From positions 12,102-43,236 of the forward strand of contig CAZUFC010000044.1 in the NCBI GenBank assembly GCA_964619725.1: 31,135 nucleotides of DNA. The letters run 5' to 3'. Position numbers and translations under genes: made by a program. The notes under the pieces are model-generated. The model was not told where the DNA came from. It saw only the letters and a list, made by a program, of their open reading frames with translations, and made no database searches. Positions 3,280 to 24,508 of this stretch are shown in pieces (position 1 is the stretch's first letter; each line of letters begins with the position of its first letter). The stretch comes from an uncultured bacterium. Its GTDB lineage: Bacteria > CSSED10-310 > CAZUFC01.

Positions 3280-3393
3280 CAGCAGATATTCCCAGGAAAG
3301 AATTTTCGGCGCTTCTAAAAGACAATAAATTTTTACTACCAACAGCCGGAAATTGTCAATCAGCTTGCAGGCCGCGCCGGATTACGGCTTTAT

Positions 3394-4458: not shown

Positions 4459-4537
4459 TGATGTTCCTTTCTGCGGCAAGCAATGATGAAAGCGGGGCGG
4501 TTGCCGGTCGTTTCAAATATCCGAACCCTGGGGGTTG

Positions 4538-6931
4538 TCAGTAACGTTTCTGGTATATTTCATCCAGGGTTAGATTCTTGAGGTCTTCAACGAGAGAGAC
4601 GAGATGAGCGATCATTGTTTTCCAGATTTTGCGGCCTTTGCCGGCTGTGGCTCTGGTAGGATCGCCGATCACGCCGCTTTGTGAGAATTTCCGGGTATAG
4701 GAGTACCAAATGACGCCTCTTTTTGAAGTAAAATTGAGATAGCGGCTGGAGAACCTTGGAGTCAGTCTGGAGGCTTTGGACATTTGAACGAGTTCGGGTC
4801 TGACGGCGAGAGCTGCGCTGGTTTCAATTTCGCCGGCATGGATATCATTAGGCGTATCAGCGATCATTTGGACATCCACATCGCTGGTTTCTCCGGTATC
4901 GACGCAGACGAAGACGCCTGCATCCCTGTTTATCATCTGTGCTGCGAAGGTTACAGCAGGTATATTTCCGCCGTGACCATTGATGATGACGAGTTTTTTA
5001 ATGCCGTTCCGGGAGACGCTCATGCCGATTTCGTAGACCAGGTGAGCGAGAGTATCGTTTTTAATGCTGATGGTGCCTGCAAATTCGTCATGTTCATAGG
5101 AAACCCCGTAAGAGATCAGGGGAAGCGCTAAAGGTTTGGGGTCACTGCAGGCATCCGCGACGTGTTCTGCGAGGTATCGAGCGTCGAATGCATCGGTGTC
5201 GAGGGGAAGGTGCAGGCCGTGTTGTTCTATTGAGCCGATCGGCAGAATGGCGACATCGACGATTTTGAGTCTTTTTTCAATTTCCGGCCAGGTCAGTTCG
5301 GCCCAAATGTAGTCTTTACGGGTAATTTTTTTTTCGCAGTGTGAGGTTTTGACTTGTTTGGAGCTTTTGTCCGGGAGTTCGAAAGGGAAGTTCTTGGACA
5401 AATCCGGATCAAGGAAAAGATCGAAAGGGCGCCAGTGGCCGGCGATTTTTTTAAGAGCGCCGTCAGTATATTGGAGGCATATATCGTAAACGGGTTTTCG
5501 AATTTCAACCGGAATGCCGTTGATGGGAGAACGTTTGGAATCAAAGCGAAGATGCATAATTTCTGTGCAGGGTTTTAATGTTTTCTGTTCTGAGGCGTAG
5601 AATTCGACGGCTTTTTTTTGATGAAGCAGCCACTTGAGATGACTGATGCCTGGGGCTTCCTGATGAATGCCCTTTCGGGCGATATCTTCCAGGCATTGTT
5701 TTATCTGTTTTTCCGTATATCCGCAGTGTTGAGGGTCAGCGCCGAATGCGATGAGCATACCCACGATTCGCCGGCATTTTTCACATTTGCCGCAGGGTTT
5801 AACCAGCGGGCCTTCCTTGTGCGCGGCGTGGCACGAAACCTGGTGTTGCTGGAGAGCGGGGTACCTGACGGCGAGTATTTTTTCGATCAGCAGCTCGGAC
5901 AGCGGCCGGAGAATGGAAAACTGGCTGACTCCCCAACCTTTACGCAGAAAATACCTGGACAGAGCATTATCAAAAGAGCGGCTTTGGTCGAACAGTCCGT
6001 CATAATGATTGACCCCCCTGTAAGTCTTCATGACGGTAGTATCAAATTCGTCGCCGATAATCAGTTTTCCGATATTCCTTTTTTTCAGGAGCGGAAGAGC
6101 GCCGAAGAGAAAAACAGCGACGGTCCACAGGCGTATAGGATATTCATCAGCTCTGATGCTCGCATAATCTTTTCGTATAAAGGGCATACGCCGCAACATC
6201 CAGTTGAATATTCTGTCTGAATTGGTCCAGACCCTTGAAGTGTTCGGTTCATTGCTTTTGAAATACCGGTATGCGTTCAACGCCGTGAACCAGTGCCGGC
6301 CTGATTCATTGATAAATACAGGATGAACGTCGAAACCGTTTTCATTAAGCAGCGCGTAGCTTAATAGACTGTCTTTCCCGCCGCTTGACAGGACCGCAAG
6401 TTTTTCTGCATCAGCGGCCCATAATTTCCAGGGCACCCCTGAACCGGCAGAGTTTGAGGGAATGAATTCAAACTGCGTTTTAAGATAATTTTTTTCCTTT
6501 TCAAAGATCAGTCTGGAAGCTTCACCGGTGAGGAAAGGATTCTCCTCCATAAATTTTTTTATGTATATTTCTTTTGCCGTATTTTCCGCCATTTCACGTA
6601 TGAACTTTTGATCGGTTTCATCGTAGCTGCCGTGAAAGGTTAAAGAGCGACAAAAGAGTCCGTAATTGATTGAAACCTGTGCTGCGATCATTTCGGCCAG
6701 GTTCATGGATTCCCGGGAGGAGGGATCGAAAACATCCTCTTCAAATTTATAGATCAGTTCGACTTCTTCATTTTTATTTCCGTAAAGAAGTCTATAGGGG
6801 GCCGTCAGCTTATCGGGCTGCAGTTTTACAGGTCCTATTTCAAGCCGATCAAAGACACAGACATTTTGAAGAGAGGAAGGAGGAGAATTTTTTAAGGAGT
6901 CAGCGGTTTTTGTCAGTTTTTTTTGTTTCAT
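4538..6931 (-). CDS. Fusion protein: N-terminal PP-loop ATPase (QueC/MurL-like, Cys-rich) plus C-terminal creatininase-family amidohydrolase
   Basis: SSGGKDS PP-loop, SCH...CGKCEKC metal site; the last ~260 aa carry LTWPEI, GSIEQHGLHLPLDTD, NGHGGN and HAGEIETS. Start overlaps the upstream stop (ATGA). Confidence 0.85.
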   Translation of the reverse strand: MKQKKLTKTADSLKNSPPSSLQNVCVFDRLEIGPVKLQPDKLTAPYRLLYGNKNEEVELIYKFEEDVFDPSSRESMNLAEMIAAQVSINYGLFCRSLTFHGSYDETDQKFIREMAENTAKEIYIKKFMEENPFLTGEASRLIFEKEKNYLKTQFEFIPSNSAGSGVPWKLWAADAEKLAVLSSGGKDSLLSYALLNENGFDVHPVFINESGRHWFTALNAYRYFKSNEPNTSRVWTNSDRIFNWMLRRMPFIRKDYASIRADEYPIRLWTVAVFLFGALPLLKKRNIGKLIIGDEFDTTVMKTYRGVNHYDGLFDQSRSFDNALSRYFLRKGWGVSQFSILRPLSELLIEKILAVRYPALQQHQVSCHAAHKEGPLVKPCGKCEKCRRIVGMLIAFGADPQHCGYTEKQIKQCLEDIARKGIHQEAPGISHLKWLLHQKKAVEFYASEQKTLKPCTEIMHLRFDSKRSPINGIPVEIRKPVYDICLQYTDGALKKIAGHWRPFDLFLDPDLSKNFPFELPDKSSKQVKTSHCEKKITRKDYIWAELTWPEIEKRLKIVDVAILPIGSIEQHGLHLPLDTDAFDARYLAEHVADACSDPKPLALPLISYGVSYEHDEFAGTISIKNDTLAHLVYEIGMSVSRNGIKKLVIINGHGGNIPAVTFAAQMINRDAGVFVCVDTGETSDVDVQMIADTPNDIHAGEIETSAALAVRPELVQMSKASRLTPRFSSRYLNFTSKRGVIWYSYTRKFSQSGVIGDPTRATAGKGRKIWKTMIAHLVSLVEDLKNLTLDEIYQKRY

Positions 6932-8025
6932 GCGGCAATCTCCTTTTTATGGTTCTTCAGGTAGGATTCCAGGTGTGCAACGAGAGGTTCGACGCCTTGT
7001 ACCAGGATGTCCCAGACCGGCAGGCCTAGCGTTATGGAGATAGAGCGGCATAAAGCAGGAATTTCCGGGAGGGGGATATTTTCGTGATTAACGGTGACTG
7101 CAGCCGTCGGTTTACCGGAGAGCAATTCCAGGGCCTGCATCTGTTTCGGCAGGGGATGAATGGGATACCCGGGAAATCCGTCGTAATCTTTTCTGGCAGG
7201 GGCGTGCTGCAGGACTATGACGTCGGGGCGTCCGGCCGCCAGCAATTCAAATCCTCCGGGATAGGCGGGGTTCATAATGCTGCCCTGACCTTCGATAACT
7301 ATGACGTCCGGCCGGACTTCGTTCCACGCTTCCCATACGGCATGTTCTATTTCTCCTGATACGAAATCGTTGATCAGTGAGTCCAGTATGATGCAATACT
7401 GCGCTCCCTGCATCCAGGCAGTTTGCCCTGTCCCGACTAATACGCTTTTTATGTCCTTTTTGTTGAATCCCTCAACAATGCGCCATGCCGTGGTTCTTTT
7501 GCCTACCGCAGAATCGGTTCCCAGTACCGCTATCTTCAACGCTTTCACCCGTTCGATTTTTCCTGAGAAAAAATGCAGTTCTTTTGCCGGACGAGGTTTT
7601 CTGATGTCCCGTACGACAACGCCATATTCGCGGGCAAGACTCATGACCGCATCATTTTCAGTCAAAAAATCATGCAGTCCGCAATCAACGTTTAAACCGG
7701 CTCTTATGGCATGTTTAATATCACGCAGCGCTTCAGAAGAGAGTCTGCCGCCGTCCGGCGCCAGTCCTACGACCAGAAAATCGGCTGGAGCAGCGGTATC
7801 CCGGCAGCGGATTAAGGCTGCATCGATTGATGAGACGATGGGTATGCCGTTTGGATGGCCGTCTAAAAGGTATCCCGCATCCTGTCCCGAACAACAGGAA
7901 TCCACTACAGCACAAACGTTGTAACGGCGGGTAAAACGAACCAGACCGTGCGCCGTTTTGCCGTTAGCAGTATTGAAATATCCTTCGCAATATACTACCG
8001 CATTTCTTTCCGGAAACCTTTCCAT
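6928..8025 (-). CDS. DUF1611 family protein (DgcN D-glutamate N-acetyltransferase-like)
   Basis: GKTAHGLVR, GLHDFL, GTDSAVGKRTT, TGQT and EGQGS motifs typical of DUF1611; shares an operon with an enolase-family epimerase. TAATG coupling with the upstream gene. Confidence 0.9.
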   Translation of the reverse strand: MERFPERNAVVYCEGYFNTANGKTAHGLVRFTRRYNVCAVVDSCCSGQDAGYLLDGHPNGIPIVSSIDAALIRCRDTAAPADFLVVGLAPDGGRLSSEALRDIKHAIRAGLNVDCGLHDFLTENDAVMSLAREYGVVVRDIRKPRPAKELHFFSGKIERVKALKIAVLGTDSAVGKRTTAWRIVEGFNKKDIKSVLVGTGQTAWMQGAQYCIILDSLINDFVSGEIEHAVWEAWNEVRPDVIVIEGQGSIMNPAYPGGFELLAAGRPDVIVLQHAPARKDYDGFPGYPIHPLPKQMQALELLSGKPTAAVTVNHENIPLPEIPALCRSISITLGLPVWDILVQGVEPLVAHLESYLKNHKKEIAA

Positions 8026-9176
8026 TACATCCTCCCTGTTAAAATCGCCACATACCGGTCATTGGGCAGAGGTTCTTTTTCATGCCTTTTCATCAGCGCT
8101 ATTAATCCTGCTGTCGAAGCCGGCAATACGCTTAATCCTTCACGTTCACGTATCAGCTTGGCGCAATGCAGCATTTCTTTGTCCGATGCATCGAAAGCCC
8201 AGCCGCCGGATTGACGGATCGAGTTGAGAGCGGCTTCTCCGTCGAAGGAGTGACGGTTGATCAGGGGTTCATTTATTTTCGTTTCATGAATTCCAGTGGG
8301 ATTCAGATCAAGGCAATGCGGCAGGTTCTTCAGGTAGGCATTGATGATGGGATTTTTGCGGAAAGAGGACCCAGCAGATATCCTGGGCATACGCGAAGTC
8401 CTGCCCCGGCGGTAAAGACTTAAGAATCCCCTGTATATGCCCGCCAGAGTCGTGCCGTTCGATACGGGACAGCCCAGAGCATACGGAGCATCTCTTAATT
8501 CATCGTATATCTCGTACGCAATTTCTCCGTATGCGCGAAATTGCATGGAAGTGTTTTCGCCGCCTGGATTGGCGTCGTAATATTCATGCTCTTCAGCATA
8601 CTTACGCGAAGCCGCCACAGCATCCTCATAATCACCTGGAATGCGGAGAACTTCAGCTCCCAAATCTTCGATCTCCCTTATTCGCTTCGTATGATAGGTT
8701 TCAGGAAGATGAATGATGCACCTTATGCCTGCCAGATTAGCCGCCAGTGACAGCGCTGTACCGTAATTGCCGCAGGTGGCCGTCGTCAATCCGTCAAATC
8801 CCCGTCTTAATGCATCTCGCGCCTGAAAAAACGCTATACGGTCCTTCTGGGTTCCCGTAGGATTCCCGCCGTCAAATTTAAGATAAAGCTGACGCATCCC
8901 GATGGAACGCTCTAAATTACGCGCCCGCAACAATACCGTATCACCCACCTCTGAATCAATTATATCCTCATACGCTTCAAGTCTCTGCGTCAACGGATAA
9001 GCGGCATTTGAACATATCCTGCGCCGGTCGGAAACATCTTCTGAGAATTCCTTTATTTCTCCCACCGCTCCATCTACCAGAGTAAGAATATGTTCATTCC
9101 CCAATTCTGCAACAGATTCCGCCTGAGCTTCGCTTATCCCCTCAGTCGATTCGTTGCTTCCAACCATTTCATCCAT
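8025..9176 (-). CDS. Fold-type-II PLP-dependent enzyme (threonine synthase-like)
   Basis: GDTVLL, LYLKFDGGNPTGTQKDR (PLP lysine), TCGNYG, PVSNGTT, ASTAGL and ILTG. Start chosen at ATG 9176 after AAGGTGA. Confidence 0.88.
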   Translation of the reverse strand: MDEMVGSNESTEGISEAQAESVAELGNEHILTLVDGAVGEIKEFSEDVSDRRRICSNAAYPLTQRLEAYEDIIDSEVGDTVLLRARNLERSIGMRQLYLKFDGGNPTGTQKDRIAFFQARDALRRGFDGLTTATCGNYGTALSLAANLAGIRCIIHLPETYHTKRIREIEDLGAEVLRIPGDYEDAVAASRKYAEEHEYYDANPGGENTSMQFRAYGEIAYEIYDELRDAPYALGCPVSNGTTLAGIYRGFLSLYRRGRTSRMPRISAGSSFRKNPIINAYLKNLPHCLDLNPTGIHETKINEPLINRHSFDGEAALNSIRQSGGWAFDASDKEMLHCAKLIREREGLSVLPASTAGLIALMKRHEKEPLPNDRYVAILTGRM

Positions 9177-9285
9177 GATCTTCACCTTCAAGGCTGATTT
9201 TGACAACTTTAAGCCATGGTCCGCACACAAAATACCTGCATTAAATCAGGCGAAGGAGACTTCTTCCCACGGCCTCCCGAAAATA

Positions 9286-9301
9286 ATCAACTTTTATGCC
9301 A
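9286..9301 (-). promoter_or_regulatory. Candidate sigma-54 promoter for the PLP/DUF1611/fusion/epimerase operon
   Basis: Minus strand TGGCATAAAAGTTGAT: GG-N10-GA, the same -12 variant as at 1510; about 110 nt upstream of the first gene. Confidence 0.55.
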
Positions 9302-9363
9302 AACTGTAACTTACAGATATCAAAAGATTTGTCGGGATTGCCCGGGAAAACGGCCCGGTTTTT

Positions 9364-9384
9364 CGGTCCTTTCGGTTCCGATTA
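9364..9384. promoter_or_regulatory. Candidate enhancer (UAS) for a sigma-54 activator
   Basis: CGGTCC-TTTCG-GTTCCG-ATTA, related to the dyad at 1296-1316; 65-85 bp upstream of the -24 element. Confidence 0.35.
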
Positions 9385-9669
9385 TTCGTGAGAACAATCA
9401 ATCCCTGGCTGTGTAAAGAATTCGCGGCTTTAATGTTTGTGGGGACTGTCGCTGCGAAATTCCGGTCTATAACGCATCACACGACTGCTATAACTCCGAA
9501 CTCCTACCCGCAGCACCCCTCGCACGACTGAATCTGCAGGAATTTAAACTGCCTCATATCAGTTTTAAGGAAAAATACGGGTGAGGATAAATTCACCGTT
9601 TATGGACAAAAACAGGGTAACGGGGACTGTTACTTTCTGTCAGTTTTATTCCATTGTAAAAACAACAAT

Positions 9670-9857
9670 TTCAGAACTCTTGACATACCCTAGTCAATCA
9701 ATTGATTTTAAATGCTTTTAAAACTCACCAATTCGGCAAAATTATTGTGAAATATTTTTGAATTTCACGACAAACAATATTGATATTCTTTGAACCGTGA
9801 TCCGTTTTCATCAAAAAATTCACAATTCTTTTCAGGCACATTGTCAGGAGCTCAGAA
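9670..9857. mobile_element. MITE-like element, family B (complete copy)
   Basis: Terminal inverted repeats TTCAGAACTCTTGACA (9670-9685) and TGTCAGGAGCTCAGAA (9842-9857, 13/16 match); internal IR ATTGTGAA/TTCACAAT; the left 82 bp recur at 30935-31016. Confidence 0.55.
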
Positions 9858-9983
9858 TTTAGCAATATTTATCAATAACGAAGAGGAAAACGCGGGGTGC
9901 GAGTAAACTTTACTGTTACAGAAACAAAGGTTTAAAAAGCATTAATATAAAATAAGTTAAAGGATTTAGGCTCATTCTGGTTT

Positions 9984-9999
9984 TGGCTTTGATTTTGCT
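9984..9999 (+). promoter_or_regulatory. Candidate sigma-54 promoter
   Basis: TGGCTTTGATTTTGCT: GG(9985-6)-N10-GC(9997-8), preceded by an AT-rich tract and followed by an RBS and ATG. Confidence 0.55.
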
Positions 10000-10027
10000 C
10001 AATCAAGAGTGGAATTGGAGGCGTATC

Positions 10028-10120
10028 ATGAGAGCAAATCTATTATTGTTTGCCGGGGTGATTTTGCTTTATGGCATCTGTATTTTGGTTTTGTTTTTTT
10101 CAATGAGTTTTCAATTGTAA
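10028..10120 (+). CDS. Small single-pass membrane peptide, 30 aa (not in the ORF track)
   Basis: GGAGG RBS (10017-10021) 6 nt before the ATG; translates MRANLLLFAGVILLYGICILVLFFSMSFQL-stop, with about 20 consecutive uncharged, mostly hydrophobic residues. Confidence 0.55.
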   Translation: MRANLLLFAGVILLYGICILVLFFSMSFQL

Positions 10121-10129
10121 AAAGAGGGG

Positions 10130-10428
10130 ATGATGAGAATACCCGGGATTTTGGAAAGCCTGCTGCAATCATGGACAACGTTGAACAAGCGGATAAGAGA
10201 AGAAGAGATTAGCAAAAAATTTAATCCGGTTTTATCGGTCATGCAAAATGAAAGAAAGATACAAATCAGTCGTCGAGAATTTAGGGGCATAGATCAAAAA
10301 TGCGTCTTTTGAGGTTACAATTAGAAAGAATATCTCATCATTTCGTTTCGATTGCGATACCGCCCCCGATTACTGAAACAAACTGTAATAAATTATGGAA
10401 GAAGTGTAACCCCGGTTTGATCAGTCCC
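10130..10428 (+). repeat. Interspersed repeat family A, copy 1 (diverged module plus MITE-like unit ending TGATCAGTCCC)
   Basis: 10333-10428 is clearly homologous to the reverse complement of 12311-12436. 10130-10220 weakly matches the reverse complements of 12540-12643 and 27656-27757 (GGACA...CGGATAAGA-AAGAAG). Confidence 0.7.
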
Positions 10429-10519
10429 GAATTCAGTAATATAAATGTTGCATTGTGCTGTTTCATGAGCGGAATAATCAGAGATGCGAAAGAGTGACGT
10501 GAAAGAGAAAAAAAGTTCG

Positions 10520-10745
10520 TTCCAGGAGGTTCTGGAAGGATATTTATGGAACGAAGATAATAGATGTGGGACTTCTCCTTTCAGGACAGTTGGGCATGGT
10601 GGGGTGACAGGAACTGCATTGTGAAGGTGGAGGTCGCGTCCGGGGATCCCCTCTCCAATTTATCGATCCCGGTGCGGCCTTCACCGGCCAGTCGCTGCTG
10701 TTGAAGGCTGGATTCTGGAGGAACGCCGGCAACCCTTTTCATTTT
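10520..10745 (+). ncRNA. Candidate GGA-rich small RNA (CsrB/Rsm-like)
   Basis: 12 GGA motifs in about 200 nt; ends in an imperfect hairpin (GTTGaaGGC...GCCggCAAC) followed by a T-rich tract; no convincing ORF. Confidence 0.3.
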
Positions 10746-10790: not shown

Positions 10791-11999
10791 TCATAAGCGC
10801 AAGGCGCAGCACCGTCGGCAGAATGCATGGGCATTTGAGTTCAGCAGATAGCGCCGCATTTTTTTCATCTCCCTGCCGTTCCATACTCGTTTTAGAGGAG
10901 TATGCGAGACGTTTCCATAAACGAAATAGAAATAGAGTCCGCAGAATACGGCATCGCCGTTTGGAAAAACATTCATGACGTTCCAGGGGAGGGGACATGT
11001 TTTTTTCGGCATTTCCCAATCCTCCCACGCTCCGTAATAAGCAATAATTTCTTCGTCGGTATAATCAGGTTCGACAGCTATTGGAATTCCGGTTTGAGCC
11101 GATAGTTTTCTAATTATTTTTAATTGGTCGATCACAGTTTTACCGTCGATTTTCATCCGGTCTCCCGCCGCTTCTGTGCCGCCGAATGGAAAAGCCGCGC
11201 CGACATTACCGTCGAATCCGCGATCAGAATTCCCGGATACGCTTTCAATGGTGTTGAAGATCAGGTGTCTTACGCTGATTTGATCAGGATTGAATCTTAT
11301 CATTTCCTTGACCGTCGGAACGATTAACTTATAATTGGCGCTGCAGAGGGTAAAAATGAGTTTTATATTGGAACGATTATTTTTTCCGTTAAGCGAAACG
11401 ACCTTCTCTATGCCCCGGCAGGCTGCATCGAAAGAACCTTCGCATCCCGTAATATCATCGTAAACGCTTCCGATACCGTCGAACGATACGCCGATCAGGT
11501 TTACACCGCTGTTTATCAGGGACGGAGCTGCAGCTTCCAGATTGCCTCCGTTCGTGGTTAAAGAAACGAACAACCTCTTTTCCGCAAGTTCAAACAGCAG
11601 ACTGTCGATGGCGCCGTATTCCAGGGGTTCTCCCCCGAAAATGCTCACCGTGGGCTTGTATCCGCTTATATCGTCTATGATTTTGCGGCGAGTTTCTACG
11701 CTCATGTCCGTCAACCAATCATGCGGCAATTTGTTTTCTTCCATCGACTTCAGTATCTCCGGATGAGAACAATACCGGCACTTGTAAGAACACTTCAGGG
11801 TCGGAACCAGGCTCAAAGTCCAGGGCAGAAAACTCCAGTCCGTTTTTATCCTCCCGGGTAAAAGACTTAACGTCAACCGCTGCCTTATACCCGAACTGAT
11901 CAGCGCTCTTTCTCGAAGCGCCTTAGCCAGATAATCCGGCGCCTTGGAAATCAGGTCTTTAAAAATTTGAGTTCTGTTCGATTTTGTAGCCATATCCAT
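10791..11999 (-). CDS. Radical SAM protein with C-terminal SPASM/Twitch domain
   Basis: CSYKCRYC (CX3CX2C), GGEPL, TTNG, VSFDG; C-terminal CPLPW...NGDAVFC...GNV...CRRCC; AGAGG RBS. Confidence 0.92.
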   Translation of the reverse strand: MDMATKSNRTQIFKDLISKAPDYLAKALRERALISSGIRQRLTLSLLPGRIKTDWSFLPWTLSLVPTLKCSYKCRYCSHPEILKSMEENKLPHDWLTDMSVETRRKIIDDISGYKPTVSIFGGEPLEYGAIDSLLFELAEKRLFVSLTTNGGNLEAAAPSLINSGVNLIGVSFDGIGSVYDDITGCEGSFDAACRGIEKVVSLNGKNNRSNIKLIFTLCSANYKLIVPTVKEMIRFNPDQISVRHLIFNTIESVSGNSDRGFDGNVGAAFPFGGTEAAGDRMKIDGKTVIDQLKIIRKLSAQTGIPIAVEPDYTDEEIIAYYGAWEDWEMPKKTCPLPWNVMNVFPNGDAVFCGLYFYFVYGNVSHTPLKRVWNGREMKKMRRYLLNSNAHAFCRRCCALRL

Positions 12000-12310: not shown

Positions 12311-12643
12311 GGGACTGATCAGACCGGGGTTACACTTCTTTAAAAACTTTTTACAGTTTGTTTCAGTAATCGGTATCGGTATCGTTATCGGGTTCGGTAT
12401 CGAGGCAGCAATCGCAGTCGAAACAAAATGATGAGAATTTATTTCGAATTGCAGCCGCTGTTTGATCAGTCCCCGCAAATGTATTCCTGTGTGAAGTGAG
12501 TTCTAAACAGAGTTGCAGACGGGTGCAGCAATTTTTACTATCGCTACATTTTTTATCCGTGAGGATTATTGTCCGTCGTTTTGGCGTCTTTTCAACTGTT
12601 TCTCCAAACCCGAATATTTCGATCATCGCTTCCATTTCCGTTT
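12311..12643 (-). mobile_element. Repeat family A, copy 2: MITE-like unit 12311-12473 plus adjacent ~100-bp module
   Basis: Perfect 11-bp terminal IR GGGACTGATCA (12311-12321) / TGATCAGTCCC (12463-12473); internal ATCGGT-type hexamer repeat at 12369-12404; 12540-12643 is homologous to 27656-27757. Confidence 0.7.
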
Positions 12644-12788: not shown

Positions 12789-14207
12789 ATGAAGAAAGAC
12801 CGGGATAAAAGGAAAGCATATGCGACTCCTGAATTGGAAGAGGTTGATCCAGCGCATGCTTTGAGTTATCAGCAAAAGAGTCTTGACATGGAGATTTTTC
12901 GATATATTGACGGAGAGGGCATCGAATCGATGGCTGAGCGATATGGGACTCCTTTGTATGTTATTTCAGAAAAAAGGTTGAGGGAAGATTACATAAGGGT
13001 CCTGCGGTCTTTCGTCGAATATTATCCTGATACTGTAGCCGCTTATTCGTACAAGACGAATTATCTGTCGGCGATATGCGCTATATTGAGGGAAGAAGGC
13101 GCCTGGGCAGAAGTTGTATCCGGTTTTGAATACAGAATAGCGCGTGATTTGGGAATACCGGGTTCCAATATTATTTTCAACGGCCCGTGGAAGACGGATG
13201 ATGAACTGGGAAAGGCTTTTGACGAAGGAGCTCTAGTGAATCTGGATTCATTTTCCGAGCTGGACAGGGTGGAGGAAATTTCGAAGCGAAAGAAGCGGAA
13301 GCTGAAGGTGGGCGTAAGGGTCAATTTTAAGTTGAATTATCCTCCCTGGGCCAAATTCGGATTCAATGCCGAATCGGGCCAGGCTTTTGATGCCTGTCGT
13401 CGGATAAAGGAGTGCGAATATCTGGAGCTTTCCGGTTTTCATGTTCATGCCGGGACTTTCATTCTTGATTTGGACGTATATGAGAAGAGCACAAGGTCGA
13501 TGATCGAACTGGCGAATCGAGTCAGGAACGAACTGGGGCAAGAGCCGGAATATTTTGACATAGGGGGAGGATATGCATCTTCCAACACTCTTCATGCTCA
13601 GTTTTTAAGAGGGGAAACGACAACGCCGCCTATTGAAGAGTATGCCCGGGCGATAGGGGGCACGCTCGGCCGTTATGCGGACTCTTTCAACAAGAGACCT
13701 GTTTTATTCATAGAGCCCGGTCGAGCGGTCGTTGATCCCTGTATGAGTTTATTGACGAGGGTAGTAGCTGTAAAAAGTTTCCCTAACGGCGAAAAGGGCG
13801 TAATATTGGATGCGGGGGTCAATTTATTAAGCACGGCATACTGGTATAAGCATGAGGTGGAATTATCGACGAAGGAGTCACGGCCTATAGAGGAAGTGAA
13901 TATTTTGGGAGCTTTGTGCATGAACATTGATGTTCTTCGAAGAAAAGCGCGTCTGCCTGCGCTCAAGGTCGGCGATATACTGAGGTTTAAAAACGTGGGC
14001 GCGTATAATTTTTCTCAATCCCTTCAATTTATATTTCCGCGTCCGCGAGTCATTCTGATTGGTCCGGATAAGACGGAAATCGTCCGACTTGCTGAAGACG
14101 AACGATATATCAGGCGTCTGGAGCGTTTACCGGAACATCTGTCGAATGAAGAAAGCCGCAACAGCGTTCTTCCTCGTCCGCCGGATTCAGGATCAAAGCA
14201 GAGTTAA
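12789..14207 (+). CDS. Fold-type-III PLP decarboxylase (diaminopimelate decarboxylase/LysA-like, non-canonical substrate loop)
   Basis: YGTPLYV, YSYKTN (PLP lysine), FNGPWK, KFG, HVHAG, DIGGG, EPGR, GALCMNID and GAY motifs; GGGAGGA RBS 8 nt before ATG 12789. Confidence 0.9.
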   Translation: MKKDRDKRKAYATPELEEVDPAHALSYQQKSLDMEIFRYIDGEGIESMAERYGTPLYVISEKRLREDYIRVLRSFVEYYPDTVAAYSYKTNYLSAICAILREEGAWAEVVSGFEYRIARDLGIPGSNIIFNGPWKTDDELGKAFDEGALVNLDSFSELDRVEEISKRKKRKLKVGVRVNFKLNYPPWAKFGFNAESGQAFDACRRIKECEYLELSGFHVHAGTFILDLDVYEKSTRSMIELANRVRNELGQEPEYFDIGGGYASSNTLHAQFLRGETTTPPIEEYARAIGGTLGRYADSFNKRPVLFIEPGRAVVDPCMSLLTRVVAVKSFPNGEKGVILDAGVNLLSTAYWYKHEVELSTKESRPIEEVNILGALCMNIDVLRRKARLPALKVGDILRFKNVGAYNFSQSLQFIFPRPRVILIGPDKTEIVRLAEDERYIRRLERLPEHLSNEESRNSVLPRPPDSGSKQS

Positions 14208-14217
14208 TCCGAATTAA

Positions 14218-16089
14218 ATGAAACTGAATACGAAAAATTTTATGAAGTCGTCGCTGAACGGACTGGGGGCAGCGTTTTTCTGCGCCAATCCTCTGTCCGG
14301 CTTTTTTTTTGGACTGGCGTTGCTTTTATTAAGCGTAAAAACATTTTTTTACGTATTGACGGCATTGGTAATTTCAACGATAACGGCGGTGATATTGAAA
14401 CGGGACGAGGAGCTTGTTTATTCGGGCGTGTACGGTTATAACGCGGCGCTGTTGGGATTGTACTGGACCTGTTTCAGTCCTTCCGGCGTCCAGGTATGGT
14501 TGGGATTGGCTGCGGCATCGGTGATGGTATTCCTGGTGATGGAAGTTTTTCTGAATTTGTTCGTATACAGGCGATGGAACATGCCGGCGTTGAGTTTTCC
14601 GTCGTTAATCGTGATATGGATTTCATGCCTGGCGATGGGCGGTATGAAGATAGCGTGGTCTGATCTTCAATTGACGCCGGCCGGATTTGAAGACATTTTT
14701 TCGTATGATTGGTCCTCTTTTCAAGCTGTGTTTATAGATTGGATGTATTGGAGCAAGGCATTGCTGAAATATATGCCGGCGGTGTTATGTTTTTGTGCGG
14801 GGATACTGGTGCATTCACGCATCATGCTGGCGACAGCGATTTCAGGAGCGGCTGCCGGGCTTTTCCTGGCATTATTCATGGGAGCCAATGACGGATTTCT
14901 GTGGATGGATTTTTATCTGATTACGACGACCCCGATTGCGGCGGCCTTATGCGGTTTTTTCATATACTTGAAAAAGCGGACGATTGTTTATACGGCATGT
15001 GCGATCCTGTTTTCAGCGCCTGTCTGGTATGCCGCGCACAAGCTGCTTTCGGAATCGGGACTGCCGATATTCACGGCTCCCTTCGCCGTCGTCGTTTTCC
15101 TTTTTTTGCTCCCCTTGAAGTTGCGTCCCAGGACTTTCCAGAAAGTAGGATTAACGCCTACTCCGCTAATATTGGCGGCTTCGCCCGAATATGTCGCGAA
15201 GGTCAGAAAAGACGAAGAGATGGGCGAATCGTTCTGGGATACAATTTATCTAACAGAAGAGGAAAGGTGGTGGAAACTGGACATGGCCGACAAGATCAAC
15301 AAAGCTGTCGAAATATTAATGAATTCAAGCAAGATAGCAGCGTTTACGGGCGCCGGCATCAGTACAGAATCGGGGATACCCGACTACAGAACGGAATTTT
15401 TGCATTGGAAAAAATATGATACCAGTCATTTTCGGTATGAAAGGTTCGTCAGAAGCGAGGAATCGCGGCGTTATTACTGGCAGATGAGTCAGGATTTTTA
15501 TCTGGTCATTAAACAGGCGGAGCCTAATGTTGCGCATCTGGCTCTGGCTGAACTGGAAAAAATGGGTAAGCTGAAGAAAATAATAACGCAAAATGTGGAC
15601 AGGCTGCATCAGAAAGCAGGGAATAAGCCTGAGAACGTTCTTGAGTTGCACGGGAATGAATTGACGGTAAGATGTTTGAAATGCGGGAAGAAGTATCCGA
15701 GATCGGTCGTGTACCAGTGGATCATTAATGGAATGAGCGTGCCTTATTGTCTGGAGTGCCAGGGGTTGTTGAAACCGGCTTCAGTGGCTTTCGGCGAACC
15801 CATGCCTTACGAAACGAGTAAAGAAGCTTTCAGGGCTTCGCTAGATTGCGATCTCTTCCTCGTTATAGGGTCATCTCTCCTTGTCCAGCCCGCTGCCCTT
15901 CTGCCGTGGAAAGCCAAAGAAAACGGCGCCCGGCTCATCATCATCACCTTGACGCCGACTCAGTACGATCAACAGGCCGATCTGGTTTTCAGGCAAAAAG
16001 CCGGCGATATTTTGCCTCTGCTCACGGAACGTTTGAAAGGTATGGCTCATTACTATTCGACGGAAAGCAGATTCAGCCGGAACGATTAG
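14218..16089 (+). CDS. Urea transporter (UT family) - sirtuin (Sir2/CobB NAD-dependent deacylase) fusion
   Basis: The N-terminal ~300 aa are polytopic, with NPLSG, GVYGYNAALLG and LPIFTAPF UT-like motifs. From ~15283: GAGISTESGIPDYR, ITQNVDRLHQKAG, ELHG, CLKC/CLEC zinc site, FGE, GSSLLVQPA. One uninterrupted frame. Confidence 0.88.
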   Translation: MKLNTKNFMKSSLNGLGAAFFCANPLSGFFFGLALLLLSVKTFFYVLTALVISTITAVILKRDEELVYSGVYGYNAALLGLYWTCFSPSGVQVWLGLAAASVMVFLVMEVFLNLFVYRRWNMPALSFPSLIVIWISCLAMGGMKIAWSDLQLTPAGFEDIFSYDWSSFQAVFIDWMYWSKALLKYMPAVLCFCAGILVHSRIMLATAISGAAAGLFLALFMGANDGFLWMDFYLITTTPIAAALCGFFIYLKKRTIVYTACAILFSAPVWYAAHKLLSESGLPIFTAPFAVVVFLFLLPLKLRPRTFQKVGLTPTPLILAASPEYVAKVRKDEEMGESFWDTIYLTEEERWWKLDMADKINKAVEILMNSSKIAAFTGAGISTESGIPDYRTEFLHWKKYDTSHFRYERFVRSEESRRYYWQMSQDFYLVIKQAEPNVAHLALAELEKMGKLKKIITQNVDRLHQKAGNKPENVLELHGNELTVRCLKCGKKYPRSVVYQWIINGMSVPYCLECQGLLKPASVAFGEPMPYETSKEAFRASLDCDLFLVIGSSLLVQPAALLPWKAKENGARLIIITLTPTQYDQQADLVFRQKAGDILPLLTERLKGMAHYYSTESRFSRND

Positions 16090-16090
16090 C

Positions 16091-17599
16091 ATGACGATAA
16101 TTTCATATGCTACAGCCGCAGGTGCAGTCTTGTTGGCTTTCGCGGCCGGCGCAGCGTTTGCCGGAAACGGGTTTCATTTATCCTGGTCAGGCGAATTCCT
16201 GGCCGTTCCCGTCATGATGAACAATAATATCGATCTGGACAACTCAGACAAAAAAGATGAAATTACTTACCTCAGCGCCGCATTGTACATTTCGGGACAT
16301 TTGTATTACCGCCAAAGCGCCGGATTGCACCTGGCCCTGCGAACAGAGCAGAAATCAGGCTATACTCTGCCTTTGAAGGAAAAAGTCACAACTTACTACG
16401 GCGCTTATGAGCGTGACGACTTGTTCGATTATGTGCCGCACCTGGAAGAGCTGTATGCGGACTTTCAAATTGGAAGCTCCTGCAGGCGGATTAAAATCGG
16501 TTTATTTCCGATTCGGTCGGACAGCATGACTTTGAGCAACAAACATGAAAACTATGGGATGAGTTACATTTACGCCAGAGATAACTATACTTACGAGTTT
16601 TTTTTCGGGGTATGCGACTGGAACAACGAATTATACGTCGGCGGCGGCACGGAAGCGGAATCCGAAAGAAGAAAGGGTAAAAACCGTTCGAATGCTTATT
16701 TCAGTTACTTTCAGGGCCGTTACGAAAATCATTCTCAGAAATTTTTATTGTATACCGCTGTTTTGCATGATGTGACGTCGCCTGAAGACAGGCTTACTTT
16801 TCTGAACAGAAAAGTGAAAAAATCAACCCTGGGCATGGTGGGATTTAGGTATGGCTTCGATACGCCTCGGACCGGCTGGAGATTGGAGGCGGCAAGAAAT
16901 TTCGGGAAGGATGAGGTTGAAGGCGCTGCGGATTTCAACCATAAGGGTTATTTAATAAGCGGCAGAAGTTCGCTTTTTTGGGGGATGTTCGAATTTTACA
17001 TTAATTTTATAATTGCTTCGGGAAACGAATGGGATGAAAATGAATATTTTTCCGACTCATTCGGATTCGATGAGAATGAAGCCTTTTCATTTTATTCTCC
17101 GGGGAATATGTGGCTTTTCGATTCACGATATCCGACTTATCTGGGACCGGCGGCGGCGACGGGGAGCGGCTGGGGATTAAATTACGGCATCGGGCGTCCG
17201 GGCATCTTTAATGATCCGCATCTTCCCTCCAATATCATTTTATACAATTTAGGAATCGAGTCCCATATATTGAACGGATTGGAGGCGTCGACGGATTTTT
17301 ATTATCTGAAGTCGCATCGCAGCGGCATAGGCATGCGCGATGTGGGCGGGGACTTGAAAAAATGGGAGACTTTTAAGCTGCCCAGAACATTAGGTTCAGA
17401 GGTCGATTTTCATTTATCGTACCGGTACAGTTCCGAATTGTCCTTCAGCCTGATGGTCGGATATTTTCTGCCGATGGATTACTATGAAGCGAAACGTGAC
17501 GATGATGATCCTTACGGCATATTTCCCCGCTTGAACGATTCAGGAAAGACGGACGGAGTATGTCAGGCGGAATTGGGAATTCGCTTGAAAATGTTTTAG
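16091..17599 (+). CDS. Putative outer-membrane beta-barrel protein (alginate-export/porin-like)
   Basis: Signal peptide ending AFA; aromatic-rich alternating strands; LGSEVDF..SYRY..LSFSL..GYF pattern; terminal Phe. Starts 1 nt after the fusion gene stop. Confidence 0.65.
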   Translation: MTIISYATAAGAVLLAFAAGAAFAGNGFHLSWSGEFLAVPVMMNNNIDLDNSDKKDEITYLSAALYISGHLYYRQSAGLHLALRTEQKSGYTLPLKEKVTTYYGAYERDDLFDYVPHLEELYADFQIGSSCRRIKIGLFPIRSDSMTLSNKHENYGMSYIYARDNYTYEFFFGVCDWNNELYVGGGTEAESERRKGKNRSNAYFSYFQGRYENHSQKFLLYTAVLHDVTSPEDRLTFLNRKVKKSTLGMVGFRYGFDTPRTGWRLEAARNFGKDEVEGAADFNHKGYLISGRSSLFWGMFEFYINFIIASGNEWDENEYFSDSFGFDENEAFSFYSPGNMWLFDSRYPTYLGPAAATGSGWGLNYGIGRPGIFNDPHLPSNIILYNLGIESHILNGLEASTDFYYLKSHRSGIGMRDVGGDLKKWETFKLPRTLGSEVDFHLSYRYSSELSFSLMVGYFLPMDYYEAKRDDDDPYGIFPRLNDSGKTDGVCQAELGIRLKMF

Positions 17600-17615
17600 G
17601 CGTCGGGAATTAAGG

Positions 17616-18533
17616 ATGAAAAACGGGATCAAAGCGGCAAAAATAAAAATAGGCGAAAAAACGGCAATTGCCGTCGTTCTTGTTATTTATTCGCTGGGAG
17701 GCGGTTGCGTTACTTTTCGGTTGGGCAACTTAAAGGCTGAGGCTTTGCGTTGTTTTGAGCTTCAGAAATATGAGCGAGCTGCGAAAAAGTTCAGGGAAAT
17801 AACGGTTATCGCTCCTGATGATGCAGAATCCCTGTTGCTTTTGGGTTGGTGTCGATACTATGAGGGGCGGATGGATAAGGCGGTTGAGTCGTTTGAATCA
17901 TTGCTTAATCGGTTTCCGAAGGTTGAAGAATCCAGGAGAGTATCCTGTTTGCAGGGATTGACGCTGGCCCACTATTACAGGCAAAACTATCAGAAAGTTT
18001 TGCGCGTCGCGGGGAAGGCTTTGAGTTTGAATGCTTCCTGGGTAAACGGCTATTTGCTGAAAGGCTGGTCATTTTTTTATCTGGGTTCCTATGACATGGC
18101 CGAGAGAGAATTCGAGAAGGCGAAAGAATTGAACGCAAGTTTATATGAGGCGGACCGCGGGATTGGATTATGCGCGTATTATCAAGGCGATTATGAGCAT
18201 GCCCGGATCATGTTGAAAACCGCCCTGGATCGATGCGAAGAAACAGCGAATCCGGTTGAAAAAAGAGCTGTTCTTTCAGAGCTGGGTTGGGCCTGTCTGA
18301 AAGCGGACCGACTTCAAGACGCGGAATTTTATTTGAAAGAATGCGGGGGCGATGCCCCCTTCTCTTTCAACGTCAAACTGGGCCTGGCCTATGTTGCGCT
18401 CGAACAAGGCCGATATGAAAAAAGCCGTGAATTGTTCGATGAATTATTGGAGCTTTTTCCTGAGAGTCCTATAATACTTGAGGGAAAAAACAGGATTGAG
18501 GAAGAAAAAAACATCAAGAGTGAAACCAATTGA
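17616..18533 (+). CDS. Tetratricopeptide-repeat protein, probable lipoprotein
   Basis: Basic N-terminus, hydrophobic stretch and LGGGC lipobox-like motif; repeated LGW..Y..G....A...F TPR helices. Confidence 0.85.
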   Translation: MKNGIKAAKIKIGEKTAIAVVLVIYSLGGGCVTFRLGNLKAEALRCFELQKYERAAKKFREITVIAPDDAESLLLLGWCRYYEGRMDKAVESFESLLNRFPKVEESRRVSCLQGLTLAHYYRQNYQKVLRVAGKALSLNASWVNGYLLKGWSFFYLGSYDMAEREFEKAKELNASLYEADRGIGLCAYYQGDYEHARIMLKTALDRCEETANPVEKRAVLSELGWACLKADRLQDAEFYLKECGGDAPFSFNVKLGLAYVALEQGRYEKSRELFDELLELFPESPIILEGKNRIEEEKNIKSETN

Positions 18534-22692: not shown

Positions 22693-23355
22693 ATGGCTAA
22701 AATAGCGCCCTCTTTATTGTCGGCCGATTTCAGTCGATTGGGGGAAGAGCTGGACAAAGTAGTACGTGCGGGAGCGGAATATATTCATGTGGACGTCATG
22801 GACGGTCGGTTCGTTCCTCAGATAACCATCGGGCAACCGGTTGTCCGGGCATTGAAAAGAATCTGTCCTGTGCCGCTGGATGTGCATCTTATGATAGAGC
22901 GGCCTGATGATGCCGTAGAATCGTTTCTTAAGGCCGGTAGCGATTATCTGACGGTACATGTGGAGACAGCGCTTCACCTGGACAGGACCTTGAATCTGAT
23001 TAAACAAGCGGGCGCCGGCGCCGGCGCTGCGCTCAATCCCTCGACTCCCGTTTCGCTCCTTGAAAACGTCATTCACCTCACTGATCTTATCCTTATAATG
23101 AGCGTCAATCCGGGATTCGGAGGACAGAAATTCATCCCCTATTCGCTCGATAAAATCAGGGAATTATCGGAAATGGCGGAAAGCAGGGGGGTGAATCCCA
23201 TAATAGCGGTAGACGGGGGAATCAACCGGGACAATATCGTGAGCGTTGCCGAGGCCGGAGCCGATCTGATCATAGCGGGTTCAAGCATCTTTCATTCCGA
23301 TGATCCTGGAGAGATGACCAGGCGATTTATTCGAATGATAGAAAAAAATGAATAA
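22693..23355 (+). CDS. rpe: Ribulose-phosphate 3-epimerase
   Basis: IAPSLLSADF, HVDVMDG.FVP, DVHLM, MSVNPGFGGQ and VDGG motifs. Confidence 0.97.
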   Translation: MAKIAPSLLSADFSRLGEELDKVVRAGAEYIHVDVMDGRFVPQITIGQPVVRALKRICPVPLDVHLMIERPDDAVESFLKAGSDYLTVHVETALHLDRTLNLIKQAGAGAGAALNPSTPVSLLENVIHLTDLILIMSVNPGFGGQKFIPYSLDKIRELSEMAESRGVNPIIAVDGGINRDNIVSVAEAGADLIIAGSSIFHSDDPGEMTRRFIRMIEKNE

Positions 23356-24508
23356 GAATTCTGACTACTATAATTCCCTTTTGAAAGAAACGGCTGAAGC
23401 CGTGAATCTCGCCGAGGGAGCTGAAGGGGTCAGGATATTTTTAACTACGGTGGAGAAACATCCGGGGATTTCTTTAAAAAAACTGGCATCCGAGATTGAG
23501 CTTCCTCTTCCGGTTACGGCCGCAATCCGGCGAGAGCTTGAAAAGCGCGATGTTTTGATACGGCGCCAGGGTATTCGTTTTTCCGACGCGTTTTCCCGGA
23601 AACTATCCCGGAAGACGATTGACGCAAAACCCGACCCTCTTCCACAAGAAAATTTTCTGCCGGAAAACATATTGGAAGATATTTCTGAAGAATTGAGGGA
23701 CATACTTGATTCGAGACCGTCGGCAGACCCGAAGCTGGATCAATCCAAAGCGGTTTTCGATACAATCATAAGGCGGATCAGCTTTATGATCGATAACGAT
23801 CTGATTTCCGGCAGAATTATAGTGTTTCTGGGCGACGATGATTTGATGAGCATAGCTGCGGGGCTGGCCGGGGCAGCTTTAAACAAACCCGCCAACCGTC
23901 TGATCTCAATAGACGTGGATGACCGTTTTCTTTCCGCCATAAAAAAACGTTCTTTTCATTGCAAGCCGCCCGTCGAAACGATTTTACATGATTTAAGGAG
24001 TCCGCTGACGCCTGACTTACGAGATATGGCTGACGTGATCGTAACCGATCCTCCTTATACCAGGGACGGAATAAGCCTTTTTTTGAGTCGCGCTGCCGAA
24101 GCGCTAAAAAATGAACCCGCAAAAAAAGTAATGCTGTTCGCTAATCCTGGTATGCCGCAGAAGGAGCGGCAAGTACAAAGCGACATTATTGAAGCGGGAT
24201 TTCTGATCAAGGAAATCCACAGAAGGTTTTCGCGATATGAGGGAGCGTCGGTGATCGGGAGTCAGAGTCATTTTTATTATTTAGAGAGCGTCGGAGAAGA
24301 GTTTTCTGTAACGGGGAAGCGAAAGTGGGAAAAGATTTATACTTACGACGTAAACCCGACGGTCAAAATCTACCGATGTCAGTCCTGCAGGACGAAATTC
24401 AGGGTCGGGCAAAAGCAGAAATACGAAGTGATTGGTGAGTTGAAAGAATCGGGATGCCCGAACTGCGGAGCCCGTAAATTTCAAAGGGTCGCCAAATTGA
24501 AACTTTAG
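23348..24508 (+). CDS. BpsA-like N4-bis(aminopropyl)spermidine synthase family protein (DUF43) with C-terminal zinc ribbon
   Basis: LDQ, FLGDDDLMS, DVDDR, HDLR.PL and TDPPYT.DG..LFLSR motifs; terminal CQSC...CPNCG; overlaps rpe by 8 nt. Confidence 0.8.
   Translation: MNKNSDYYNSLLKETAEAVNLAEGAEGVRIFLTTVEKHPGISLKKLASEIELPLPVTAAIRRELEKRDVLIRRQGIRFSDAFSRKLSRKTIDAKPDPLPQENFLPENILEDISEELRDILDSRPSADPKLDQSKAVFDTIIRRISFMIDNDLISGRIIVFLGDDDLMSIAAGLAGAALNKPANRLISIDVDDRFLSAIKKRSFHCKPPVETILHDLRSPLTPDLRDMADVIVTDPPYTRDGISLFLSRAAEALKNEPAKKVMLFANPGMPQKERQVQSDIIEAGFLIKEIHRRFSRYEGASVIGSQSHFYYLESVGEEFSVTGKRKWEKIYTYDVNPTVKIYRCQSCRTKFRVGQKQKYEVIGELKESGCPNCGARKFQRVAKLKL

Follow-up and report, generated by a model that had tools for sequence, protein, structure and literature searches.

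What does a protein of the urea transporter (UT) family do when it is covalently joined to a sirtuin? This question is raised by a gene in a 31,135-nucleotide stretch of DNA (the window) from an uncultured bacterium of the candidate division CSSED10-310 (contig CAZUFC010000044.1 of assembly GCA_964619725.1). Work on bacterial sirtuins has treated them as soluble regulators, and UT proteins have been viewed as channels for urea; here, the two are joined in a single protein encoded within a cassette conserved in several uncultured phyla. In at least three lineages, the fused gene is the last gene of this cassette, the order of which is: an exported tetratricopeptide repeat (TPR) protein, a PqqD-family chaperone, one or two ATP-grasp enzymes, a decarboxylase resembling LysA, FslC and BtrK, and the UT fusion. 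The cassette seems geared to the synthesis and export of an amide-linked product rather than to the handling of urea. We hold, with moderate confidence, that the fusion is a membrane-stationed deacylase dependent on nicotinamide adenine dinucleotide (NAD) that finishes or controls the product of the cassette, rather than a urea uptake system.

A UT-fold membrane domain tethered to a complete sirtuin

The gene (Table 1) encodes one inner membrane protein, composed of a UT-fold domain, a short tether and a sirtuin facing the cytoplasm. A single open reading frame (ORF) with a UT-like and a Sir2 domain was the starting point of the original prediction, and both domains are complete in Pfam: UT (PF03253) at residues 10–299, with 142 bits over profile positions 2–290 of 292, and SIR2 (PF02146) at residues 378–558, with 150 bits over positions 1–180 of 180. 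The AlphaFold2 model of the fusion protein, built with 44 relatives in the alignment, has a mean predicted local distance difference test score (pLDDT) of 91 and a predicted template modelling score of 0.71. Residues 1–332/339 of this model match solved urea transporters with Z scores of 36.5–37.5 and root mean square deviations (rmsd) of 2.4–2.7 over 305–318 aligned residues (VIA-align). For the bacterial transporter dvUT (3k3f), the values are Z 37.1, rmsd 2.6 Å, 307 aligned residues and 25% identity (model range 1–332), and phmmer matches the same structure with an E-value of 1.9e-16 across residues 8–300. The Pfam span and the structural alignment together reveal the UT fold, made up of two five-helix repeats in inverted orientation and two pore half-helices, and the assignment of the N-terminal domain to the UT family is thus upheld. 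The linker, initially taken to be about 55 residues long, consists mostly of the C-terminal helix of the UT fold (residues 323–341), with disorder limited to approximately residues 342–355. UT proteins have an N-in/C-in topology, and the charge pattern of the window protein (K/R-rich N-terminus, short loops and post-membrane segment; acidic central loop) fits this topology, placing the sirtuin on the cytoplasmic side, as anticipated.

The sirtuin is of the Sir2Af2/Sir2Tm type, with all the NAD-binding, catalytic and zinc-binding residues present. Residues 356–610 of the model align with Sir2Af2 and Sir2Tm with Z scores of about 31 (VIA-align; Foldseek was also run); the comparison with 1yc2_E gives Z 31.2, rmsd 2.2, 247 residues and 46% identity (VIA-align). 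Sir2Af2 (1ma3) is also matched at the sequence level (E 9.7e-57), and identity to Sir2Af2 is 44–46%. All the sirtuin motifs listed in the original prediction were found (GAGIS at 378, QNVD at 458, HG at 478, CLKC at 486, CLEC at 511 and FGE at 525). They make up a Rossmann domain with GAGxS, TQNVD and the catalytic His (His478), together with a four-Cys zinc module (Cys 486/489/511/514); G378, A379, G380, S382, T457–D461, H478, C486, C489, C511 and C514 are invariant in 44 of 44 family members. The domain scores below all the curated NCBIfam cut-offs for CobB (258 of 320 and 237 of 243 bits, at best), and the E. coli-type CobB model NF001755 yields 106.6 bits, versus a cut-off of 318 bits. The Y-x-x-R pair is the acyl-pocket motif of SIRT5 and of E. 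coli CobB-type desuccinylases; it had been reported as lacking, and a regular-expression search for Y..R indeed found no such pattern anywhere in the 623-residue protein. Judging from its residues, the fusion is apparently a membrane-tethered, putatively active sirtuin, as first proposed.

Two-chain docking of the UT (1–345) and Sir2 (352–619) parts gave a score of 0.50, versus 0.00 for the best of three controls, with a contact agreement of at least 74% and a partner pLDDT of at least 84. The mark used is passed by 58 of 80 solved complexes and by 2 of 110 mismatched pairs, passes at or below 0.60 being limited to 7 of the 80 solved complexes and both the passing mismatches. The model therefore lends weak support to docking of the Sir2 domain on the UT domain.

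A constrained pore lacking the urea ligands

PMC4357013 describes the selectivity filter of dvUT as comprising an inner site (Si: Q24, V25, F80, L129), a middle site (Sm: L84, T130, L247, T294) and an outer site (So: E187, V188, F190, L293). These residues were mapped by hand onto the phmmer alignment, with family counts over 44 members. Three middle-site residues, L84, T130 and T294, correspond to L78 (Leu in 40/44), S126 (Ser in 38/44) and T286 (Thr in 40/44) of the window protein, and inner-site residues F80 and L129 correspond to Y74 (Phe in 34 and Tyr in 9 of 44) and L125 (Leu in 41/44); F285 is also counted among the kept or conservatively replaced filter positions. The fourth middle-site residue, L247, is replaced by a conserved proline (P239; Pro in 40/44). 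The urea-binding residues are replaced too, Q24 of the inner site by A18 (Ala in 26 and Gln in 9 of 44) and E187 of the outer site by L182, at an unconserved position. Further changes are V25 to A19, V188 to L183 and F190 to Y185 (in a poorly aligned stretch), and the outer-site columns (the equivalents of E187, V188 and F190) are unconserved across the family. The residue set of the dvUT filter, taken as a whole, is thus absent from the window protein. On sequence grounds, the pore is constrained yet is not a textbook urea filter, because the middle and inner positions are kept, whereas the urea ligands and the outer site have been lost.

The UT part belongs to the most divergent UT subgroup encountered, with a Pfam score of 142 bits, versus about 200–340 for canonical UTs, and 100 bits for the NCBIfam model urea_trans_yut, the cut-off of which is 274.6 bits. 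Urease alpha (TIGR01792; PF00449 was also used) was not found in any of the five carrier genomes tested, the maximum score being 39.8 bits versus a cut-off of 680 bits. The early emphasis on urea or amine flux is not sustained by these changes in the filter and by the urease results.

Recurrence of the fusion

PF03253 and PF02146 occur together in 61 of the 115 database rows for the protein: 54 of the first 55, plus seven shorter and more divergent proteins (539–567 aa). A C-terminal GNAT domain is added in 5 of these 61 rows, and one short relative, P0072, keeps the UT-then-Sir2 order with a short linker. The fused relatives bear the names ‘urea transporter’ or ‘NAD-dependent deacetylase’, and their hosts are Planctomycetota, candidate division CSSED10-310 and Rokubacteria. 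The fused form was found in 3 of the 14 genomes examined from the phylum of the window and, among 401 Planctomycetota genomes, in 12 (one cut by a contig end); one other Planctomycetota genome (G337) has a split form. In this genome (locus L139, 8238–10144, minus strand), a 366-aa UT ORF and a 269-aa Sir2 ORF overlap by 4 nt and lie directly behind the decarboxylase, as in the fused loci. The architecture postulated at the outset therefore recurs, and its relatives are not unlinked genes throughout. Several UT-only proteins of about 360 aa retain the post-UT helix (P0119, P0120, P0123, P0124, P0133, P0144) and may be further split forms.

The architectures of 79 of the 150 best UT-domain relatives, from a library of 1.84 billion proteins, were UT alone in 52 (including the forms of about 360 aa with the post-UT helix), UT-M23 in 11, UT-Sir2 in 6, UT with inserted TPR in 4, UT-EF-hand in 4 and UT-Sir2-GNAT in 2. 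A second UT-family protein (494 aa) is encoded by the genome of the window itself; TPR repeats are inserted between its UT halves, and its gene adjoins a weak match to an AMP-binding enzyme.

Could the fusion be an artefact of assembly or gene calling that joined two genes? The source of the window is a metagenome-assembled genome, 6.5% of which is contamination, and in one sequencing run (X2) the depth bin 13702–13868 is without cover, the only bridge over the junction being a pair of contigs with a 9-nt overlap. In another run (X1), a single 5275-nt contig spans positions 14703–17700, domain junction included, with 0 differences. Cover of the linker region, one of the checks initially suggested, is thus present; run X1 may be the very sample from which the window came, so this contig does not count as independent support. 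Such support comes from the many independent genomes and metagenomes in which this ORF is likewise continuous, and makes an artefact extremely improbable.

A conserved biosynthetic cassette

The neighbourhood of the fused gene is the principal new result and provides further insight into its possible role. The pyridoxal phosphate-dependent decarboxylase encoded just upstream, the stop codon of which lies 10 bp before the fused gene, scores below the cut-offs of every NCBIfam model (230 of 500 bits for FslC, 224 of 298 for LysA). Its closest solved relatives are an N-citrylornithine decarboxylase (7kh2, E 1e-57), a diaminopimelate (DAP) decarboxylase (1twi, 7e-51) and BtrK (2e-26). In each of 16 related loci, the UT-Sir2 gene is directly preceded, on the same strand, by an ortholog of this decarboxylase, which bears out the suspected link with this neighbour; the loci are 15 genome loci (G003, G008, G041 and 12 further Planctomycetota, including the split form) and one metagenome locus (L144). 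The decarboxylase stop and fused-gene start codons often overlap in the genome loci.

Further upstream, ATP-grasp A is present in 15 of the 15 genome loci. This part of the cassette also includes a large TPR protein bearing a signal peptide and another ATP-grasp-like gene, which in some cases is fused to that of the decarboxylase; a small gene for a PqqD-family peptide chaperone lies just before ATP-grasp A. PqqD-family ORFs were recognized in five loci (L001, L093, L139, L143, L144), with Pfam PqqD E-values of 6e-9 (L143) and 2e-13 (L144) and with lasso-type PqqD models at E 1e-6 to 1e-13, below their cut-offs. A PqqD-like recognition element adjoining modifying enzymes is the arrangement of clusters for peptides that are ribosomally made and then post-translationally modified. 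The only solved match of the ATP-grasps is an uncharacterized protein (2pn1). The full row is seen in metagenome locus L144, a GNAT variant, which encodes TPR (1054 aa), PqqD (125 aa), grasp A (350 aa), grasp B (363 aa), decarboxylase (451 aa) and UT-Sir2-GNAT (765 aa) proteins. In the organism of the window, the cassette is broken in two, because the half encoding the TPR, PqqD-like and ATP-grasp proteins lies on another contig (Table 1), where it is followed by a gene for a 2587-aa beta-helix protein.

The association is specific. ATP-grasp A homologs were found in 24 of the 401 Planctomycetota genomes, including all 13 UT-Sir2 carriers and 11 others. As a negative control, cassette genes were found in none of the 79 loci of the closest standalone sirtuins, obtained from a scan of genome contigs seeded on sirtuin motifs; the same scan yielded one fused locus, L001.

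Downstream from the fused gene, the 502-aa protein has no Pfam or NCBIfam match. Its nearest ESM Atlas clusters (scores 0.99–0.98) contain Alginate_exp in 12–20% of their members, a lead only, according to which it is a probable outer membrane beta-barrel of the porin-like type. The window, G003 and G008 are the only cases in which this barrel and the small TPR protein lie 3' of the fused gene; the barrel homologs share 22% identity, and the small TPR counterparts in G003 and G008 carry a lipobox. The large TPR proteins have signal peptides and the small TPR protein a lipobox, and these exported proteins, with the barrel, suggest passage through the envelope. No Rfam family was found in the window at gathering thresholds, and promoter-like sites between 12000 and 18800 are at the level of shuffled sequence (10, versus a mean of 9.8), with no clear operon boundaries.

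Table 1. Positions of the fused gene, its domains and the other features discussed (window coordinates, unless a contig is given)
Feature	Position	Strand	Description
UT-Sir2 fusion ORF	14218..16089	+	623 aa, ATG start
UT-fold membrane domain	14218..15240	+	residues 1–341, including conserved cytoplasmic C-terminal helix 323–341
Flexible tether	15241..15282	+	residues 342–355; pLDDT <50 at 342–351; Sir2 helix from 356
Sirtuin domain	15283..16074	+	residues 356–619
Decarboxylase (Orn/DAP/Arg decarboxylase fold)	12789..14207	+	472 aa; PF02784 + PF00278
Protein with signal peptide and C-terminal Phe	16091..17599	+	502 aa; start 1 bp after fused-gene stop
TPR protein	17616..18533	+	305 aa; lipoprotein-type N-terminus (…LGGGC); TPR families (Pfam)
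Other cassette half in the window's genome	G000 contig C111, L143 11750–16158	-	TPR 668 aa, PqqD-like 125 aa, ATP-grasp A 350 aa, ATP-grasp B 346 aa
Second UT-family protein of this genome	G000 contig C32, L095 6267–7751	-	494 aa
ORF open at window start	33–1127	+	
Divergent gene row	1855–9230	-	
Stretch of about 1.5 kb	9231–10743		no ORF of at least 80 aa
Inverted repeats	10313–10428 and 12311–12456		
Radical SAM/SPASM maturase-like gene	10791–11999	-	
Gene with BpsA C-terminal domain	23348–24508	+	

A sister cassette ending in a UT-peptidase fusion

In 10 of the 11 other genomes with ATP-grasp A, the genes for PqqD, a single ATP-grasp and the decarboxylase are followed in the row by a gene in which the UT domain is fused to an M23 peptidase (691–736 aa; loci L146–L154 and L156, Planctomycetota); the eleventh has a convergent radical SAM (S-adenosylmethionine) gene at this position. 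The HxH and H…D metal motifs of the peptidase are kept. A ‘PE..L’ helix past the last membrane helix is common to UT-M23 and UT-Sir2, and no hydrophobic segment separates the UT and M23 domains, so the peptidase should be cytoplasmic, on the same side of the membrane as Sir2. The terminal gene of the cassette thus encodes a UT-fold module with an amide bond-cleaving domain, Sir2 or M23. Neither this replacement nor the terminal position of the fused gene in a PqqD/ATP-grasp/decarboxylase cassette figured in the original prediction. According to the main text of PMC12998343, published in 2026, bacterial UT domains combine with M23 peptidase, EF-hand and ankyrin modules; no function is given there.

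Proposed role and alternative explanations

The role as a membrane-stationed deacylase is suggested by the kinship of the decarboxylase, the ATP-grasps, the PqqD protein, the exported TPR and barrel proteins and the terminal combination of UT with an amide-cleaving domain. ATP-grasp ligases form amide bonds, and PqqD-like proteins present peptides to modifying enzymes. In this scheme, the ATP-grasps would link an amino acid, by an amide bond, to a carboxylate of a peptide or small molecule. The decarboxylase, whose nearest solved relatives perform this reaction on substrates linked through the side chain, would strip that amino acid of its free alpha-carboxylate. As the membrane station of the cassette, the UT module would serve either as a pore, letting through a small neutral product or by-product, or as a dock for the periplasmic TPR protein and the outer membrane barrel. 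The tethered sirtuin, working at the membrane with NAD+, would take an N-acyl group off an amine of the lysine type in the cassette product, an intermediate or a cassette protein, and this deacylation would be a step of maturation, deprotection or control. The architecture, the intact catalytic residues and the synteny are established by the data above; the chemistry, the substrate and any transport are what we infer here from the gene content.

Several points weigh against this proposal. No substrate, product or precursor peptide was identified: in 18 loci, no small ORF within 700 nt upstream of PqqD is conserved across distant loci, only close relatives matching, although the precursor could lie elsewhere. 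A UT pore is narrow, and any passage through this one is hypothetical; the docking score is weak. The cassette being divided between two contigs, co-regulation is only putative in the window's genome, and a UT-M23 gene from another phylum (G029, L096) does not adjoin cassette genes. The Sir2 domain is an ordinary one, given its identity to Sir2Af2, and could be a general protein deacetylase; GNAT and Sir2 on one chain would suit a regulatory acetyl on/off switch equally well.

Other explanations place the function in the channel, in the sirtuin or in defence. GlnK controls AmtB, and a sirtuin could similarly gate a channel for urea or small amides, the pore opening or closing with NAD+ or acetylation state. 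In its favour are the retention of the complete UT fold (Z 37), the family-wide conservation of middle and inner pore positions and the docking result, which hints, though weakly, at contact between the domains. This explanation is nevertheless quite unlikely: the urea ligands are replaced by A18 and L182, the outer site is unconserved and L247 has become a conserved Pro, urease was not found in the carrier genomes, the strict partners of the fusion are biosynthetic genes rather than genes of urea or nitrogen metabolism, and the M23 peptidase that takes the place of Sir2 in the sister cassette is a misfit for an NAD sensor. Alternatively, a transport-dead UT fold may only hold, and perhaps trimerize, a sirtuin that deacetylates lysines of the cassette enzymes, regulation by acetylation and deacetylation being familiar from the Pat/CobB pair. 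Conservation is far lower in the UT part than in the Sir2 part (27% versus 54% mean identity to the window protein over 43 relatives), its outer pore site is degenerate, and the GNAT fused in 5 of the 61 rows and in L144 would be the opposing writer. A plain anchor, however, needs no ten-helix fold with conserved pore-lining L, S/T and F, this fold is retained in the M23 and TPR-inserted variants, and no acetylation target is known; we consider the anchor explanation unlikely.

SIR2 domains fused to membrane or sensor modules also occur in defence systems, and the window protein could, on this basis, be a membrane-bound NADase depleting NAD+ upon infection. This seems very improbable, as the zinc module and peptide deacylase-type fold are complete and the neighbours are biosynthetic and housekeeping genes. 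PADLOC yielded only a PDC-S65 candidate model for the fusion (17.7 bits, E 4e-4, no passing stretch) and, for the neighbours, only viperin-like models, on the radical SAM gene. Neither PADLOC nor the context thus matches the defence-type SIR2 NADases (Thoeris ThsA, DSR, SIR2-HerA), from which the protein had already been set apart. A channel for the release of nicotinamide was considered as well and was not retained.

The proposed membrane-stationed deacylase has a bolder version, which we regard as doubtful: the UT fold may have been recruited as a new export or maturation station for an amide-linked natural product, with the amide-cleaving domain deprotecting it during exit. The ligases and decarboxylase would build an acyl-amine, for example by giving a peptide or carboxylate a tail of the acyl-cadaverine or putrescine type. 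An acyl group serving as protection or leader would be taken off by Sir2 or M23, permanently joined to the channel, and in the triple fusions with GNAT one chain would cap and uncap the amine. If this were true, the fusion would provide the first case of a sirtuin with a biosynthetic, ‘deprotecting’ function, and the UT family would gain its first member with a non-urea cargo. The system is testable: its gene set is defined, its enzyme head can be either Sir2 or M23, the two being interchangeable, and a split form exists. It makes it possible to ask what range of cargo the UT fold accepts and whether sirtuins have non-protein or non-acetyl substrates. The automatic names ‘urea transporter’ and ‘NAD-dependent deacetylase’ are probably misleading when nitrogen cycling is deduced from metagenomes.

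Other features of the window

Imperfect inverted repeats flank the radical SAM/SPASM maturase-like gene, with 86% complementarity over 80 nt and 78% over 58 nt, and are also visible as similar short ORF translations on opposite strands; a small element carrying this gene may have been inserted between the divergent operon and that of the decarboxylase. The stretch of about 1.5 kb beside it has no Rfam family and may either encode small precursor peptides or have decayed. The divergent row encodes a sigma-54 activator, an enolase-superfamily enzyme of the mandelate racemase/muconate-lactonizing enzyme type, a 797-aa protein ending in a creatininase domain, a DUF1611 protein and a threonine synthase-like pyridoxal phosphate enzyme (PRK06381 type, 427 bits), and looks like a pathway for amino acid or peptide derivatives. 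Downstream of the cassette half, at a distance of 5 kb and beyond def-fmt-rsmB, a gene with a PASTA domain and rpe, lies a gene with the C-terminal domain of the branched-chain polyamine synthase BpsA, a possible polyamine link to the cassette. The ORF that is open at the start of the window encodes collagen triple-helix repeats followed by a laminin-G/concanavalin-like lectin domain.

Comparison with known systems

Full-text literature searches found nothing on a UT-sirtuin fusion or a UT-Sir2 cassette. The main text of PMC12998343 contains no occurrence of Sir2, sirtuin or deacetylase; its Table S3, which lay outside this search, could list UT-Sir2. PMC13097080, on partner-dependent graspetides, is not about the UT-Sir2 cassette.

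The window protein resembles the UT/SLC14 proteins (dvUT, UT-B, UT-A) in its fold, which is shared throughout the domain, in the LPxxS/TxP(F/S) motifs of its two halves, and in keeping the middle-site residues L78, S126 and T286 and the inner-site residues Y74 and L125. It differs from them in lacking the urea-binding Gln and Glu, in its unconserved second pore helix, in the Pro replacing L247, in its fusion to an enzyme and in its place within a biosynthetic cassette. The sirtuin shares its catalytic and zinc residues, 44–46% identity (to Sir2Af2) and a Z score of about 31 with the Sir2Af2/Sir2Tm/CobB group, from which it differs by its covalent tether to a polytopic membrane domain and the lack of Y-x-x-R. 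UT-M23 is like UT-Sir2 in its UT-first order, its ‘PE..L’ helix and its position behind PqqD, ATP-grasp and decarboxylase genes, and unlike it in having a zinc peptidase in place of the sirtuin and one ATP-grasp instead of two.

Two further systems invite comparison, the first only as a functional analogy. C39 peptidases fused to ABC transporters form the peptidase-containing exporters of modified peptides; like UT-Sir2, they combine a membrane module with a cytoplasmic amide-cleaving domain at the end of a peptide modification gene set with a PqqD-like chaperone. UT-Sir2 differs in having a channel fold without ABC or ATPase components, in its NAD-dependent cleavage and in that no precursor peptide was found. 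The cassette decarboxylase is nearest to FslC (rhizoferrin), BtrK (butirosin) and DAP decarboxylase, and in butirosin synthesis an ATP-grasp ligase, BtrJ, works with BtrK; unlike the FslC and BtrK systems, the UT-Sir2 cassette was seen to contain neither a siderophore synthetase nor an acyl carrier protein. Both domains of the fusion belong to known families; what is new is the architecture, together with its constant neighbours in the genome and the role, other than with urea, that is implied.

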